DNA of 41,000 nt from Mustelus asterias (taxonomy: Eukaryota). Positions 20,781 through 41,000 of this stretch are shown in pieces. The stretch's first letter is position 1. The number at the start of each line of letters is the position of its first letter. The translations under genes were made by a program, and so were the position numbers. The notes under the pieces are model-generated. The model was not told the origin of the DNA. It made no database searches and saw only the letters and a program-made list of their open reading frames with translations. Location of the stretch: positions 1 through 41,000 of the forward strand of contig NW_027593001.1 in NCBI RefSeq assembly GCF_964213995.1, read 5' to 3'.

Positions 20781-21239
20781 ATGAAGATACTCGTCATTTG
20801 GATTGTGTGGGGGGCATTTCTAACAGGTATTTCTGGGCATCACGTTAGTTTTCTCATTTCCAAAACTTGGGTTGAATCTTACTGTTGAGTGCACGTCACT
20901 CTTTTCTTTATCTATTTGAACATATTTTCCAGGTCTGACCCATGGAGATTCTGTCACTCAGCCGCTGTCCTCAGATGTTAAGCCAGAAGGAGACGTGGTG
21001 ACATTAAACTGCAACTATGATACTGCAGAAACCAACTATTATTTATACTGGTATCGACAGCATCCAGACTCCCAGCCCGAGTACATACTGTGGAAGTACT
21101 CGGGGGGTAATGAATATCAAGCAGATTTTGCTAAAATCCGTTTCTCGACTGACCTCCAAACCTCGAAGAAATCCATCAGTTTGACTATCTCGGATCTGCA
21201 GTTGTCTGACGCGGCCGTGTATTACTGCGCTTTCAGCCT
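20781..21239 (+). CDS. TCR alpha/delta variable gene segment, apparently functional (leader exon 20781-20826, V exon 20933-21239)
   Basis: Leader MKILVIWIVWGAFLTG, phase-1 GT-AG intron, and DSVTQP..LNC..YWYRQ..LSDAAVYYC. Confidence 0.93.
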
Positions 21240-21278
21240 CACAGTGATGGAAAGCAGCCTGAGTCCTGTACAAAAACT
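21240..21278 (+). other. 23-bp-spacer RSS
   Basis: cacagtg, 23 nt, acaaaaact. Confidence 0.95.
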
Positions 21279-22435
21279 GTCTCAGCAGGATAAGTCAGAG
21301 CTCCTCGCTGCTGTCTAGAACTTCTGGCAGATGCAGCCACAATGAGCAGCGGCGCTGTCAGCCGCTCAAACACAAACCGACAGGAAACCATATTCACCTC
21401 GGATCAACTGTCACCCAACTGTTTCCAGGAGAGGCCGAGAAAACAAACTGCAGAACCGTTTTAGGCCGACAAGTCCATCACATAATGAATGTGTCAATTA
21501 AATCGTCCCTTCTGCTGCTAATCAACTCTGTATTCCTCTAAAATCAGACCTGGGTGATAAAATCCCAAACATCCGTCAAACCTGGCCGTGAAGCGCCACA
21601 CACACAGCAGACGGAGAGTTCTCCATGTTTGTGTGACGTCCTCTGATCCGGAAGTCCCTCTTTGTCCTTTTCTTATTTTTCCATGCCTGCTAACCATATT
21701 GAACACCACTCGCTCCATCTCCCTTTTCAGTTTCTGTGGGCCTTTGAGGGTGAGCTGTTCATAGCGTTTATTTGATCACTATTGCTATATTCGAGAGAGC
21801 TTGCACACCCTGAACACATTTCATAATGTTGTGACTTTGATTTCTCAAACAAATCCGAGCAGCCAGTTTCCACATCTCCCTGACTGTCTCCACCTGATAC
21901 CAGGGTAGCATTAAACTTCTTATCATATCTGGCTTGTTCACCTGTTTGTCGCTGCTCCGTGATTCTGTAAATCAGATGAATATTTGAATACTGTTTGGGA
22001 AACATTGTGAAATTCAATTGAATGATCAAAGTCAATGAGTTCTGAAATCTGTTCATTTTTCATAAACTGTTTCTGACCCAACAGCACAGTCTGATCAAAT
22101 AAAACCTGAGAACTGGTCTTGGGCCAAAGGCTCCAGAAATCTAAAAGGGGAGATGAGGAAGAGTTGTTTAATGTTACAGAGAGGCATGGAAACAGCTTCA
22201 AAACACTAAGTCAACGAAATAGTTCAAATAGATTTATAAAGGCGAGTTTAATTATGAACGCGAGTTAAAACCAACTAATACAATTCCGCAAGTGTCCCTC
22301 ACCTCTTCTTATGGGGGGTTATATTTTGTTCTTTTCGGAAGATTCCTGTGACTCTCACTGAGTTTAATTCTTGTCCCTATTTATCGGTGTGACAGCGCCA
22401 TCTTCTGGCCAACAACTGGAACTCCCATTCTGGGG

Positions 22436-24060
22436 GGTTTCGGACTGGATCCGCTCTATCTCTGTATCAGTGTGTGCTCCATCGCACGGAAATACACGGC
22501 AGGGACCTGGGTGTGCAAGTCCACAGATCTTTGAAGGTGACGTCACAGGTGGAGAAGGTGGTGAAGAAGGCATATGGCATGCTTGCCTTTATAGGACGGG
22601 GCATAGAGTATAAAAGTTGGGGTCTGATGTTGCAGATGTATAGAACGTTGGTTCGGCCGCATTTGGAATACTGCGTCCAGTTCTGGTCGCCACACTACCA
22701 GAAAGACGTGGAGGCTTTGGAGAGAGTACAGAGGAGGTTTACCAGGATGTTGCCTGGTATGGAGGGGCTTGGTTATGAGGAGAGATTGGGGAAACTGGGG
22801 TTGTTCTCCTTGGAAAGACGGAGGATGAGGGGAGACTTAATAGAGGTGTATAAAATTATGAAAGGCATAGATAGGGTGAACGGTGGGAAGCTTTTCCCGG
22901 GTCGGTGGTGACGTTCACGAGGGGTCATAGGTTCAAGGTGAAGGGGGGGGGGAGGTTTAACACAGATATCAGAAGGACATATTTCACACAGAGGGTCGTG
23001 GGGGCCTGGAATGTGTTGCCGGGCAAGGTGGTGGAGGCGGACACACTGGGAACGTTTAAGACTTATCTAGACAGCTATATGAACGGAGTGGGAATGGAGG
23101 GATACAAAAGAGTGGTCTAGTCTGGACCAGGGAGCGGCGCGGGCTAATTGTTCCTTGTTTCTCGTTTCAAGGCTTCATTCTATGATCATCTTGCTGGTGC
23201 CAGTACAGAGCGAGACTGCGGATAGTTGGGAACCTGTCTCGGGGGCAGGGAATTCATATCGTGTTCGTGGAAGTGGAAATGACTAGGGTTGGGAAGCATT
23301 TTCCGATCGGGGCCATTGTGATCTCCTGGACTCGTTTCGATCGCCTCAGGGGGTCGGAGAGGAATTTCCCAGATTTTTTTCCCCATATTGGCCCTGGGGT
23401 TTTTCACTCTGGGTTTTCGCCTCTCCCTGGAGATCACATGGTCTGGAATGGGGGGGTAGGGGTGAGTTAATAGGTTGTAATGAACAAAGCATCGTAGCTG
23501 TGAGGGACAGCTCGGTGGATAGGATTTTGGTATGTAGGTAGGCTGGAAAATTGGGCGGGGATCCTGGATTCAGGATTCAATCCTGGACCGGGGAGCGGCG
23601 CGGGCTTGGAGGGCCGAAGGGCCTGTTCCTGTGCTGTATTGTTCTTTGTTCTTTGTTCTTATCCGACAGAAGAGCCCCCGCGAGATATAAAGGAACTGTT
23701 TCATTTCCCTTCTGTAAATCTGCAGAAAACCTCCGTTTGGGGACCTTTCGTAACCCCCTAAGCTATATTTCTTCAGCAAATGTCTCGGAGCTTCCCCGGA
23801 ATACTGCATGTACCAGGGTAGAGTTGGGGTAGTGTAAGTTATCAAGTAACGGCAGTCCAGTCCACACTGTCCTTCCCGAATTGTTAATTTGAAATGAGCC
23901 TGGAACACTGAAGTTTTGCCACTCATTCCTGTCACACAAATACAGATTGGCTCAAAAGTCAGGGTTTAAAAATAACCACTGGATGACATGGTTACCATTT
24001 AATAATGGACCCGCCGGGCAGCAAGATCATTATAATCAGTAAGGAGCATGGAGAACACAT
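22436..24060 (-). pseudogene. Inverted TRA/DV pseudogene split by a CR1 insertion
   Basis: Leader 24060-24015 (MCSPCSLLIIMILLPG, GC donor). V exon from 23928 reads SVFQ..LDCRY..WYMQYSGEAP..LLSD, then the CR1, then AVYFRAME. RSS is cacactg(22474-22468), 23 nt, tccgaaacc. Confidence 0.85.
22501..23660 (+). mobile_element. CR1/HER1 LINE, 5'-truncated, with extended 3' UTR
   Basis: RPHLEYCVQFWSP and RGDLIEVYKI motifs, with a (gttcttt)n tail. Confidence 0.95.
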
Positions 24061-26456: not shown

Positions 26457-26809
26457 ATGCATCATTTTCTCTTTTTGACATCGATATTCATTCTTCTCAT
26501 TCAGGCCAGTGAGGAAATGGAGGCAGTGTTTCAGGATCCACCGAGCATCAGAGTGAGTTACGGAGACAGTGTGAAGCTAAACTGCAATTGTTCGACATCA
26601 CATACTTCTACTGCTTTCTTCTGGTATATTCAGCACCCAGAGAAACACCCTCAATATCTATTGGAAAAAAGGAGTACTGGAAAAAATGTGACTGCCTTTG
26701 GGAAGCGGCTGCTTTATGCTACCTTAGATAACACAGCAAGAACTGTTCCTTTAAGCATTCACTATGCGCAGTTCTCTGACAGTGCGGTGTATTCCTGTGT
26801 ACTGGGACA
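26457..26809 (+). CDS. TCR alpha/delta-like V segment with leader and V in one exon
   Basis: Open frame MHHFLFLTSIFILLIQAS-EEMEAVFQDP..LNC..FWYIQ..SDSAVYSC. TATA-like tttataaaa ~60 bp upstream. Confidence 0.85.
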
Positions 26810-26848
26810 CACAGCGTTACCAGGTCAGTAGAGACCCGTACAAAAAAT
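26810..26848 (+). other. 23-bp-spacer RSS
   Basis: cacagcg, 23 nt, acaaaaaat. Confidence 0.85.
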
Positions 26849-35503: not shown

Positions 35504-35999
35504 ATGGGAATCCTTCTTGTTTTCACCCTGTGTGCCTGTTTACCCTGATGAGTACCGATCAAACTCACCCACATTGCGTGGATTGAATATAAAGCTGCCC
35601 CAGTCCATCTCAATTACAGACACTGTCTAGGATTTTAGCCCCTTTGTTTGGTCCATTAAACTCTGTGTTTAATTTCCAGGATCTTTCAATCAGTCAGTGA
35701 CACAGAGCCTGGCAGCGTTGACCAGGAAGGAGTGTCAGTCTCTTACCATCACCTGTGTTTTCTATGGAGTTTATGATTTAGAAAATTGTCATTTTTTTCA
35801 GACAAATCCAGACCGGGACGGAGCGGGAGCGGATCTCCAGCGGAGGGAGATTTATTGTACTGGTGAATAAAGCAGAAAAGACATTTTCACTGGAAATTCG
35901 GGATGTGAGAGTTGAAGACAGTGCCACCTATTACTGTAAAGTTCAGCACTGGTACTACTCACATAGGACACTGCACTGGGAGAGAGTTCGACAAAAACC
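35504..35999 (+). pseudogene. NAR-TCR (IgNAR-like) V segment, damaged
   Basis: Leader MGILLVFTLCACLP with a non-GT donor (atgagt). V exon from 35680 reads SVTQS..RKECQSLTITC..[+1 T at 35792-8]..ERISSGGRFIVLVNKAEKTFSLEIRDVRVEDSATYYCK. RSS is cacatag, 24 nt, acaaaaacc. Confidence 0.85.
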
Positions 36000-36334
36000 T
36001 CAGGACAATCAAAACAGTAATTCCCAGCAATTCCCATGTTCGGTAACTTGACTTGTCGGGTTGATGTTATTCCCAGTTCAATCTAGTTTAATTTCATTGT
36101 AATTTCCACCATCAGCTATAATTCTTCAAGGCTTTTCGCTGTTAATAAGAATCTTGCATCTCTGCTCCTGTTCCTGGGAAATTTTACCAGGAGCTCAGAG
36201 AGTCAGAAGGAAAAATTTTGTCCAATGATGTTTTGTTTTTAAACAACCAATGTTCATTATTGATTTAAATCCCCTGAATAACCGAGAAACACTGATTGCT
36301 GGGTAATGGCTGCTCGGCAGTTTGAGGTGTCAGT

Positions 36335-36431
36335 CATTCTTGTGCTGGGCTGACTGAGAGCGCTGACACTGTGGGGAGAATGAAGGTTACAGATGGGTCT
36401 GGGACGGTGGTGACTATCACAGCCGGTAAGT
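36335..36431 (+). other. J segment of the NAR-TCR cassette with 23-RSS
   Basis: cattcttgt, 23 nt, cactgtg(36367-73), then coding 36374-36425 GRMKVTDGSGTVVTITA and a phase-1 gtaagt donor. Confidence 0.85.
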
Positions 36432-36706
36432 GACTCCTAATCCCAGTGTGTTGCAGCCTGTTTAGGTTAGTGTTCACCGTCAGTTTAAATTCGTTACCAG
36501 CATCACTTCAATTGTCTGCTTCTAAAGCAGGGTGGTTTCCTGAGGAAGATTTTCAATTGCAGATTTAGACTTAGGAGCAGAGTATGAAACGGAAGTCGAG
36601 TCCGGCTGTGAGACCAGATTGAAGCAGTGTGAGACCCCAAAGGACAGGTTTCCTCCGGGGAAGGAGTTTCAGCTGATCCTATCTGGGCTATTATTGGTTT
36701 AAGGAA

Positions 36707-37243
36707 CAGCAAAAAGTCTCACAACACTAGCTTAAAGGCCGACAGGTTTACTTCGAATCACGAGCTTTCGGACCGCTGCTCCTTTCTCAGGTGTGTGGAG
36801 AGTTGGGTTCACAAACATGGCAGCTATAGACAGAGACGCAATTGCAAGAAAATGGTTGGAATGCGAGTCTTTACAGGTAATCAAATCTTTACAGGTGCAG
36901 ACAATGCGAGTGAAGAGAGGGATATTCACAGGTCAAAGAGGTGTGAATTGTCTCAAACCAGGACAGATGGCAGGACTTTGCAAGCCAGGGAAAATGGTAG
37001 AGGTTACATGTAGTGTGACATGAACCCAAGATCCCGGTCCTCAAAGACGCGCATTCCAACCATTATCTTGGAATTGCGTCTCTGTCTACATATGCCATGT
37101 TTGTGAACCCAACTCACCATTCACCTGAGAAAGTAGCAGTACTCCGAAAGCTCGTGATTCCAAATAAAACGGTTGGACTTTAACCTGGTGTTGTGAGACT
37201 TCTTACCGTGCCCACCCCATTCCAACGCCAGCGTCTCCAATCA
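36707..37243. mobile_element. Longer Penelope-like inverted element (family 1)
   Basis: Inverted arms, each with a cacctgagaaag...ccgaaagctcgtg motif. 12-bp TSD tggtttaaggaa at 36695-36706 and 37244-37255. Confidence 0.8.
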
Positions 37244-38844
37244 TGGTTTAAGGAAGGCATCGGGTAATCCTCACAACATCTTGCACTCTCACTCTCCTAA
37301 CTGGTTTCAGTGAGCGTACATTCGGGGAGGTGATGGCCAAATGGAATTATCGCTGGACTATTAATTCAAAAACACAGCCAAAGTTCTGGGAGTCCCGCCA
37401 GCGCAGATGGTGGAATTTCAATTTAATAATCATATCTGGAATTAAGAATCTACTGATGACCATGAAGCCATTGTCGATTGTCAGAAAAACCCATCTGATT
37501 CACTAATGCCCTTCAGGGAAGGAAACCTGCTGTCCTTGCCTGGTCTGGCCTACATGTGACAGCAGAGCCACAGCAATGTGGTTGACTCACAACTGCCTTA
37601 GGGTACCTGGGGATGAGCAGCAAGCCAGCGACGACGCCCATGTCACATCAATGAATAAAAATACATTATGGACGCTCCGAACCCTGCTCCCTGCTCTCCG
37701 CTGGGAGAGAGCGGAGCCACCGAGCACAGGATTTCTCTCTGCTCCAGGAAATGGTCTAAAAGAGGCCTGGAAATGTCAACGAGGTACCGGGAGAGGTAAC
37801 CCAAAATTGCAGCAGCCGGTCCAATACCTGCAGCGGCAGGAAAACGGGAACATGACACAAATAGCTTCGAGAGCTTATTTGATACTTGTAGGTGACATTT
37901 CACGTGCAATCAGTGACTCAAAATAATTATATCCTAACTGATCTTTATTTCCTTCCTATAAACAATCATTTTGGCAGAACTGCGAAAAGTTTGAATTGCA
38001 TTCTCTTCCACATATTGATCGCTAATTGTGGACAAATCCGTTTGCTTTATGTTTTTTGTCGATTTCAAAAACATGGGATTGTGCTGATTGAAGCATAATG
38101 AATCCCTCAAGGATTGAGTTGTGTCGAGGCTGAGGGTGCTGAACCGTTCCATGGATTTTAGTTTTGAATGCTAATGGAAATAATGGATTTGGGAATAGGA
38201 CGCACAGTTAGCATTAAGGTAGATGATCAGATCTAAACATTTCTGATTTGTACAGCGGGTCCCCAAGGTGGATTAGTCTACCATGTTTCTATTTCTTAAG
38301 TATCTTATTATCAGCATGAATTTCTTACACTTCTGAGAAAAAAAAATCAATAATGTGTTTGGATATCGAAAGTTTGGAAAAGCTCTGCCTTTTGGCTTTC
38401 GAAGGCCGGTAAGACATGAAAAAGCAGCACAGAAACACTGAACATTATATTGTAGTTTCAAGGAGCTCCATGTGCAGAAACTGTTCCTTCGGTGGGAGAG
38501 TTGTTCTTTTATCTTCTTTAATTCATTCGTGTGACATGTCGTCGCTGGTTGGCCAGCATTTATTGTGCATTCCTGGTCGCCCTTCAAATCAATGGCTGGC
38601 AAGGCCATTTTTAAGGGCAGTTGAGAGTCAATCACATTGCTGTGGCTTTTTCTAAACATCGGAAATGGTTTCACGGTCAGCAGCAGATACTTAACTTCAG
38701 ATTTTTAAAAATTGAAGTCAAATTCCACCAACTGCCGAGGCAGGATTCGAACCAGGGTCCCCAGAAGAAGTAGATATTTATATATGAAATATGAAATGAC
38801 TATCAGAAGAGATAGAAACATTCGGGTATATTTGTGCGGAAACA

Positions 38845-39720
38845 CATCAACTTGCAGAGGGATTTGGACCAACGAGAAAAATGGGCTGAAAAATGGCAGA
38901 TGGAATTTAACGCAGACAAGTGTGAGATATTGCACTTTGGAAGGACAAACCAAAGAAGAACGTACAGGGTAAATGGTAGGACTCTGAAGAGTGCAGTTGA
39001 GCAGAGGGATCTGGGAATACAGGTACAGAATTCCCTAAAAGTGACGTCACAGGTGGATAGGGTCGTAAAGAGTGCCTTTGGTACATTGGCCTTTATAAAT
39101 CGGAGTATCGAGTATAAAAGTTGGAGTGTTATGGTAAGGTTATATAAGGCATTGGTGAGGCCGAATTTGGAGTATTGTGTACAGTTTTGGTCACCTAGTT
39201 ACAGGAAGGATGTAAATAAGATTGAAAGAGTGCAGAGAAGGTTCACAAGGATGTTGCCGGGACTTGAGAAGCTGAGTTACAGAGAGAGATTGAATAGGTT
39301 GCGACTTTATTCCCTGGAGCGTAGAAGATTGAGGGGAGATTTGATAGAGGTGTATAAGATTTTGATGGGTATAGATAGAGTGAATGCAAGCAGGCTTTTT
39401 CCGCTGAGGCTGGGGGAGAAAAAAACCAGAGGGAATGGGTTAAGGGTGAAAAGAGAAAAGTTTAAAGGGAATATTAGGGGGGGCTTCTTCACGCAGAGAG
39501 TGGTGGGAGTGTGGAATGAGCTGCCGGATAAAGTGGTAAATGCGGGGTCACTTTTAACATTTAAGAAAAACTTGGACGGGTTCATGGATGAGAGGGGTGT
39601 GGAGGGATATGGTCCAAGTGCAGGTCAGTGGGACTAGGCATAAAATGGTTCGGCACAGACAAGAAGGGCCAAAAGTCCTGTTTCTGAGCTGTAATTTTCT
39701 ATGGTTCTATGGTTCTATGT
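38845..39720 (+). mobile_element. CR1/HER1 LINE, 5'-truncated, open ORF2 C-terminus
   Basis: 267-aa frame WQMEFNADKC...GYGPSAGQWD with a (ctatggtt)n tail. Confidence 0.95.
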
Positions 39721-40762
39721 GAAGCTCGCTCTTTGGAAAAACGTCGTGATGAATTTATGGCACAGCTTGAAAAATATGGGCGGGAGAGAGGAATAAATAG
39801 ACACACAGCTGAGGATGAGAGGAGAAGGGGATGTACGAGAACAAGCTTCGATCATCTGGACCAAGTGGCCTATTCGTGTTCAGTGGAAAGTGTAGAATAT
39901 AAAACTCAGAGACTATTCTGTTCGGAAAGGACAGGGAACAATCAGCCAATGGACTAAAGGGATTGAAATTATCACATCCCGTAAAGGCAGTTCCCAGTGA
40001 GTAACAGTAAAACCACTGCGGAAACTGAACAGACTGAACCAACCGATAACTGAGAGAAATTAGGGCAAGTTTTCATGACGGTTAGAAACCGCCATGAACA
40101 GACAGAAAACAACTCAGATGTAGAAATAAAATGAAATCAACTTGCAAATATTTCTAATGGAAGTAAAACGGTAGAATTGATGGACGGAAAGAGACAAATA
40201 GCCCAACGGCAGACTGGATTTACCTTGTAATGTTGAACTGCGGCCAAAAGTCGATCTTTGACCCACAGATTTACATTGTCATTTCGGATTAATAGGTGTG
40301 GACGAAAATCTCTGTTCTGTGCTGAACCTTGGTATGTACTGAAATATAAGACTGCTGATTTTCCTTCGGACAATCAAATCTAGACAACAATTGATTCATT
40401 GACGGGAAGAGTGAACTTTACGATTTAGTTTTCTGGTTCGCATTTCACCAACATATTTATTAGCAGATATTTAATAAAAATAAAATCATACTCTGCAAAA
40501 AAAACACAATTCTGTCAATAATGACAGTAATTTGAAGGTGCTGCCAATATATCCATTCGTTCTTCTTTTTGTCCCCACTGGAATCTTGTCCTGTCCCAGA
40601 AGTCTTTGTCCCTCAATTGCCCCTCAAGATAATGTTCAATCTGCTTCCAGAACCACCCCTTCCGCAGTGCACTTCAGGTGACTGCAATTCTCTGTGAAAA
40701 AAAGATCTGAAGATCTGCCACGCTTGTTTATTTCCAATAATCAATGCATTTTGAAACACATT

Positions 40763-41000
40763 CATAGAATCCTTACAGGACAGAAGGAGGCCATTTGGCC
40801 CGTCAAGTCTGTACCGACCACATCCCACCGAGTCCCAGGCAATATTCCCATAACCCCACATATTTATCCTTCTAATCTTTCTCGGACACTAGGGTCAATT
40901 TACCTTGGCCAATCAACGTAATCTGCACATCTTTGGACTGTGGGATGAAATCGGAGCACCCGGAGTAAACCCAAACACACACGGGGAGAATGTGCAAACT
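40763..41000 (-). mobile_element. HE1-like SINE running off the window end
   Basis: Reverse complement of the SINE core and gggccaaatggcctccttctg tail. Confidence 0.8.

Follow-up and report, generated by a model that had tools for sequence, protein, structure and literature searches.

NAR-TCR, as reportedly set out by Criscitiello in 2006, is a doubly rearranging TCR-delta of cartilaginous fish. RAG recombination follows the 12/23 rule. The V of this receptor is distinguished, in the accessible part of PMC1845163, by a cysteine in the a-b loop and by the lack of the tryptophan of the WYRK motif. Germline joining is known from shark antibody genes: the portions of PMC4279169 and PMC5192425 at hand describe partly joined VD-J clusters in shark Ig, and that of PMC2193156 (Lee et al.) notes VD joins in the shark germline. 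Outside the sharks, marsupial TCR-mu has a germline-joined supporting V, for which retrotransposition is proposed in the accessible part of PMC3457774. A pre-joined shark TCR cassette seems undescribed in the literature searched, where we did not find a germline-joined NAR-TCR; the available portions of PMC12227049, PMC6795676 and PMC5931798 describe NAR-TCR with no mention of pre-joined cassettes, and key NAR-TCR papers and supplements (table S1 of PMC12227049) may already hold such a description.

The window analysed here is the whole 41-kb contig C2969 of a 3.68-Gb genome, and towards its end lies a cassette (Table 1) that we consider to be, probably, a decayed NAR-TCR cassette, a pseudogene in which the V was fused in the germline to the 3' end of a D, likely by RAG in an ancestral germ cell. 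Like NAR-TCR, the family to which it belongs has a leader, the a-b loop Cys, no WYRK Trp, its own J with a splice donor and a downstream leaderless supporting V with a CDR1 Cys and a 23-RSS; it differs from NAR-TCR in that V and D are pre-joined, which would leave one somatic step for two, and in that the window copy is broken. With the shark Ig VD-J clusters and joined NS4 light chains, as presented in the accessible parts of PMC2193156, PMC4279169 and PMC5192425, it shares an inherited coding joint with the intervening DNA gone, a mix of split and joined forms and repeated independent events, but here the joined unit is a TCR cassette, and one join has been amplified to dozens of copies. Marsupial TCR-mu, as far as the available text of PMC3457774 goes, is likewise a two-V-domain TCR with a germline-joined V; there, however, the supporting domain is pre-assembled, whereas here the antigen-binding domain is half joined and retains its leader intron and RSS.

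Table 1. Features of the NAR-TCR cassette in the window, with the evidence for each.
Feature	Position	Strand	Evidence or remark
Leader exon (MGILLVFTLCACLP), 43 nt, phase 1	35504..35546	+	Sequence; alignment with 30 loci
Leader splice donor, broken by a 1-base insertion (GATGAGT vs GTGAGT in intact copies)	35547..35553	+	Common to 16/16 window-type loci
NAR-TCR V exon up to the inferred germline V coding end	35680..35959	+	VNAR PDB matches of intact sister; V-set; split-cassette tails
T7 run, +1 frameshift, V exon closed	35792..35798	+	Same frameshift in 7/16 window-type loci
V-D junction: 2-4 junctional bases and D 3' remnant TAGGACAC (relatives TGGGACAC)	35960..35971	+	Junction table
D 3' 12-RSS with dead heptamer (TGCACTG, 12 spacer, ACAAAAACC)	35972..35999	+	12 spacing in 40/40 loci; alignment to split-cassette D 3' RSS
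D-J intersegment without a D inside	36000..36334	+	Alignment of 35972-36373 to 14 D-J intervals
J 23-RSS (CACAGTG, 23 spacer, ACAAGAATG)	36335..36373	-	Consensus scan, alignment, weight matrix
NAR-TCR J (DGSGTVVTITA) and GT donor	36374..36427	+	J coding part 36374-36425
Intron towards the supporting V	36428..41000	+	Co-linear with C87 and C90 to base 41000

The V exon carries the a-b loop Cys at 35733 (in RKECQ), the motif ERISSGGRF and the second Cys at 35935, and reads HFFRQ in place of the Trp-containing WYR(K). Because the a-b loop Cys and the missing WYRK Trp are the marks listed in the accessible part of PMC1845163, we assign this V to the NAR-TCR type. Its domain class is V-set, the top PDB matches of an intact sister are VNAR domains (E 8e-19), and all named relatives come from sharks or rays. 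A leader peptide belonging to the NAR-type V begins at 35504, and the base inserted in its donor, broken in the window copy, is the A at 35548. The V coding end was placed by comparison with split cassettes, whose tails measure 25-27 nt. IgNAR clusters share the NAR-type V fold without a classical CDR2, but the IgNAR of the same genome (L111) has WFRK, no a-b loop Cys and three Ds, and the window V is at most 67% similar to the IgNAR V. The window shows neither a WYRK-type Trp nor three D segments nor C exons downstream, and the nearest C1-set match among those listed on C87 (150 of 793 candidates scored) is about 100 kb away. The original prediction had recognised an IgNAR/NAR-TCR-type V with its J, and both are real, with the leader, the KECQ Cys, ERISSGGRF and a J bearing a 23-spacer RSS and a GT donor; the IgNAR or IgW cluster with C exons just downstream, which it had named as the competing identity, was not found, and TCR-type Vs follow.

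It had also read the recombination signals as a pair with spacers of 24 and 23 nt, at odds with the 12/23 rule. The 23 spacer of the J holds, the 24 spacer of the V does not. The nonamer at 35991 is perfect and pairs with the heptamer TGCACTG at 35972 over a 12 spacer, and among the homologous loci the heptamer position lies 12 bases before the nonamer in 40/40, with a CAC heptamer in 21/40; CGCA or TGCA stands in its place in the 16 copies of the window type and the 3 interrupted by a repeat. A 24-spacer V RSS was rejected, the alignment of the 40 loci assigning the nonamer to the 12-RSS. In a weight matrix built from 68 RSS (lowest training score 18.4 bits), the window alone scores 14.0 bits for the 24-spacer reading against 10.6 bits for the 12-spacer reading, a preference due to the decay of the true heptamer. 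A 23/23 cassette whose D has decayed away, or one that serves as a non-rearranging donor, could appeal to these scores and to the decayed state of the copy, but it is hardly credible given an intact 12-RSS on the same nonamer in 21 of the 40 homologues. The split Vs, moreover, use 22 spacers of a different sequence from the window's, and in several of them a 24-spacer shadow match of the same kind occurs two bases ahead of the true heptamer; in the window the false heptamer is made up of the first bases of the V-D junction. As had been predicted, no D is visible between V and J: the best CAC-starting site in 36000-36340 reaches -5.6 bits, against at least 18.4 for the training RSS, the consensus scan likewise gave none, and the proposed scoring of the interval for a 12/12 D brought none to light. 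Since all related loci keep the 12 spacing and the interval holds no D-type RSS, the layout, by alignment, is 12/23 and not 23/23, and the apparent paradox dissolves.

The fate of the D emerged from other NAR-TCR cassettes. A protein search yielded 24 loci of other subfamilies, 14 of which are split V(22)-(12)D(12)-(22/23)J cassettes with a V-D interval of ~390-430 bp and a D-J interval of ~377 bp; the remaining 10 comprise two members of the window family, three loci in which a repeat follows the V, and five that have other joints. Positions 35972-36373 of the window (402 bp) align with the 14 D-J intervals at 60-63% identity and scores of 159-189, where the highest of 30 shuffles each was -11, and match the V-D intervals of the same cassettes at background only (-32 to -79). 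The 12-RSS spacer and nonamer of the window align with the D 3' RSS of the split cassettes. Behind the second Cys codon the split Vs have a tail of 25-27 nt and the window's family one of 37 nt, 10-12 nt longer, with the extra bases ending in TGGGACAC and resembling the split D ends, which read TGGGACAGT, GGGACCACT or GGGAGAGT. Interval homology, tail length and tail ends together show the window V to be fused in the germline to a D remnant, a VD-J arrangement that obeys the 12/23 rule, in which the V-D interval and both inner RSS are gone and the retained 12-RSS is the outer, 3' signal of the D. Separate V, D and J segments with two somatic joins are not what the window holds; it has a fused VD with a single 12-RSS. 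The original prediction had the D lost by decay, which does not stand, the D having been joined to V already in the family ancestor; its undescribed layout survives in the weaker sense that VD-J differs from the split cassette, while the 23/23 version of it falls.

An earlier candidate for the D, GGTACTAC, was dropped, as split Vs have GGTACTAC as their own tail. Genome-wide searches with exact patterns, run with no positive control, returned 0 matches both for an RSS-flanked D with core GGTACTAC and for a short-tail V end plus heptamer, the latter pattern being too tight for split tails of 25-27 nt that often continue in CACCGTG.

One might also regard the window type as a primary D-less V(12)-(23)J cassette, built like a light chain and never equipped with a D. 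No close split sister of the family was found, the closest split cassettes reaching 60-63% interval identity, and the joined family sits on its own long branch in the D-J tree, as such an origin would allow. Yet homology to D 3' RSS and D-J intervals extends over the spacer and nonamer of the 12-RSS and the entire interval, and the tail exceeds the split V tails by 10-12 nt of D-end-like bases, which makes this reading highly improbable.

The junction recurs at 40 distinct places, a count that may be inflated by haplotype duplicates in the assembly. A tree of the D-J interval, computed with 32 representative rows (14 duplicate or truncated loci or fragments were left out), places the 18 family rows on one side of a 100/100 branch and the 14 other rows on the other, and shows, for this interval, one origin of the joined family; in the V-exon tree, the joined subfamilies fall in an open fork, and a single clade is neither resolved nor rejected (p-AU 0.465). 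By these comparisons, D was joined to V in the ancestor of the whole 40-locus family, before the window copy decayed. Subfamilies with the same junction have diverged by up to about 30% in the interval. Contigs from short reads of samples S2 and S3 (records 17 and 25) bridge the V-D junction, the runs stemming from one study that possibly includes the assembled animal and hence not being fully independent. The same junction and 12-RSS are read through in P0002, an ENA protein from another source for which the best match in G000 reaches only 77-80% (150 scored of 518 candidates), a divergence which suggests that the V-D join is common to another lineage. A somatic V-D intermediate from lymphocyte DNA, caught in the assembly, would be in keeping with the several one-off joints found there and with the thymocytes of sharks, which, according to the accessible part of PMC2435157, make partial IgH joins, partial V-D joins being common. 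Since one junction is present in 40 diverged loci, is bridged in the contigs of two samples and occurs in P0002, the joint is inherited, and a somatic intermediate is very unlikely for the family, with next to no probability in our estimate.

Window-type (broken) and partner (mostly intact) cassettes form convergent pairs ~8-11 kb apart on 12 contigs (C87, C88, C90, C71, C115, C153, C157, C160, C444, C447, C786 and C2349), some of them maybe haplotype duplicates. In six NAR-TCR cassettes (L087, L089, L097, L045, L121 and L122), repeat insertions, LINE-like by eye, occupy the V-D or D-J interval.

The agent of the inherited join was assessed from the junction bases. They include CACA, identical to the first four bases of the V heptamer after split Vs ending in TACTACA, and may represent either V tail plus N bases or a remnant of the heptamer; in P0006 of Chiloscyllium punctatum, translation implies a V tail of 27 nt ahead of a 22-RSS, and with such a tail two bases would still need explaining. 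In the portion of PMC2193156 at hand, Lee et al. take P bases, trimming and the complete loss of the RSS as evidence of RAG action in the germ cells of sharks, so a CACA that could be RSS residue weakens the case for RAG origin. The same fusion might have come from a RAG-independent deletion of ~400 bp, running from the V heptamer to inside the D and leaving the frame open by chance, for which the match of CACA to the heptamer start speaks. We rate such a deletion as unlikely, though still to be reckoned with: in an interval of ~400 bp, both of its ends would have to fall only a few bases from RAG cut sites, no microhomology is seen at the joint by eye (the true ancestor not being to hand), and the same gene complex has other joints at RSS ends, including a precise signal joint in L082. 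A second, independent V-D join, L100 (G000:C110:84200-87700), retains nearly the same D remnant and a P-like base. It belongs to a split subfamily, its V exon is identical to that of L062, and, compared with L062, its V end is complete, its joint has a single palindromic C and its D has lost 7 bases, which reads as a cleaner RAG signature than the family joint. A RAG-mediated join in a germ cell is the reading we retain as the likelier one.

Further joints were found in the same complex. L086 (C173) and L085 (C90:1134.5 kb) both have D and J joined and a free V(22), with a reversed D piece and extra bases at the joint of the latter. With the runs aligned to a split cassette, the joint of L086 occurs in run X2 at a depth of 14.2 and that of L100 in run X4 at 3.5, each not being listed in the other three runs (X1-X3 for L100). 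L082 (C110:111000-115300) has its entire V-J interval in inverted orientation behind the V, the far end forming a precise heptamer-to-heptamer signal joint with a foreign 12-RSS, and in L095 (C122:391900-394500) a 12/23-legal inversion connects the coding end of a D with that of an inverted supporting V. L074, L076 and L078 (C96, C436 and C119) have one junction in common, at which a supporting V meets a D-like piece bearing a 23-RSS, followed ~300 bp further on by a J (ETRKLIFGNGSRLIVKP-like); L088 (C850) has the same kind of joint with a different junction. The joints of L082, L095 and L074/L076/L078 point to recurrent RAG-type events, and germline joining likely recurs at the NAR-TCR locus, the younger V-D and D-J joins each appearing in one short-read data set. 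For the one-off joints L082, L085, L088 and L095, and for these alone, a somatic origin is conceivable.

No intact leaderless V was found downstream of the J, in 36431-41000, as the original prediction had stated for the 4.5 kb downstream. Its wider conclusion that the cassette has no supporting V is contradicted by C87 and C90, which follow the window at 99.5-99.9% identity through its last base, 41000, and carry a leaderless TCR-type supporting V ~0.55 kb beyond the window end, broken by a frameshift and a stop; the segment is absent from the window because the contig ends about that far short of it. A leaderless supporting V-delta with CDR1 Cys and 23-RSS is thus located past the contig end, and behind the intact sisters it is open and has its acceptor, with no leader seen in the 520 bp upstream. 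Past the supporting V of C87 and C90, the opposite strand carries a second cassette of this VD-joined family, the partner. The partners in C90 and C88 combine an open V and a GT donor with a perfect 12-RSS, and their supporting V, which has the CDR1 Cys, is open as well; the supporting V of the C87 partner is without the first canonical Cys. Stacks of 3-5 or more 23-RSS repeats follow the supporting Vs in L036:6708-7152, L050:3488-4054, L083 and L129, and only opposed 23-RSS stacks separate the two supporting Vs of tail-to-tail pairs.

Judged by its broken leader donor, frameshift, dead heptamer and broken supporting V, the window copy is a pseudogene, which bears out the predicted decaying cassette; the T7 run and the A inserted in the leader donor had escaped that prediction. 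Other copies look intact, 16/40 family loci combining an open V exon and a GT donor with a CAC heptamer on either side. Between intact subfamilies, dN/dS amounts to 0.26, 0.31 and 0.45 in three pairs, and the V is 90% identical against about 70% for the interval. Within window-type pairs, 7/8 and 8/8 differences change an amino acid, and intact-vs-window pairs give a dN/dS of 0.98 in one case and 0.35-0.41 in two others, the substitution counts being small and gene conversion possibly adding to low values. Such figures are in keeping with intact joined cassettes being under purifying selection and the window's subfamily drifting. Four contig sets aligned to one intact cassette contained no V-to-J joint, which is uninformative either way.

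We propose that an ancestral split cassette V(22)-(12)D(12)-(23)J had its V joined to D once by RAG in an ancestral germ cell, the D being trimmed, 2-4 bases added and the V frame kept, so that the 12-spacer signal of the D would have come to face the 23-spacer signal of the J. The joined VD-J unit would then have multiplied, mostly as tail-to-tail pairs. Given the 12/23 rule, a single VD-to-J deletion of ~400 bp should suffice in an intact copy to complete the NAR domain, with one cut-and-join instead of two, and the completed domain, with a largely preset CDR3 (KAQHWYYTHGT), would be spliced to a rearranged supporting V-delta. The window's subfamily probably lost heptamer and leader donor early and drifted afterwards, and for the window copy we predict no rearrangement from the V side and no protein.

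More speculatively, RAG may still edit the shark TCR-delta/NAR-TCR complex in the germline, as the younger V-D, D-J and supporting-V-to-D-delta joins, the inversions and the signal joints would suggest, with intact pre-joined cassettes kept by selection for a semi-invariant, one-step NAR-TCR repertoire, a T-cell counterpart of the neonatal germline-joined IgM1gj; we offer this tentatively and with some doubt. If germline joining did shape a TCR family and continues, germ-cell RAG activity would extend to a TCR locus, and sharks would inherit part of their gamma-delta repertoire in preset form. For thymus repertoire data, the fixed CDR3 start KAQ[H/Y]WYY[T/A][H/Q][G/R]T offers a tag. What deserves attention is the family, together with the hints that germline joining has happened repeatedly at a TCR locus, the window copy being an ordinary pseudogene.

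Upstream of the cassette, the window contains further TCR segments. A TCR alpha/delta-type V at 20781-21279 (+) is open and has both a leader and a near-perfect 23-RSS, and there is an open TCR-type V exon with YSC, not YYC, a 23-RSS and an acceptor but no obvious leader just upstream at 26506-26848 (+). At 23661-23860 (-), a frameshifted TCR V remnant adjoins a LINE fragment.
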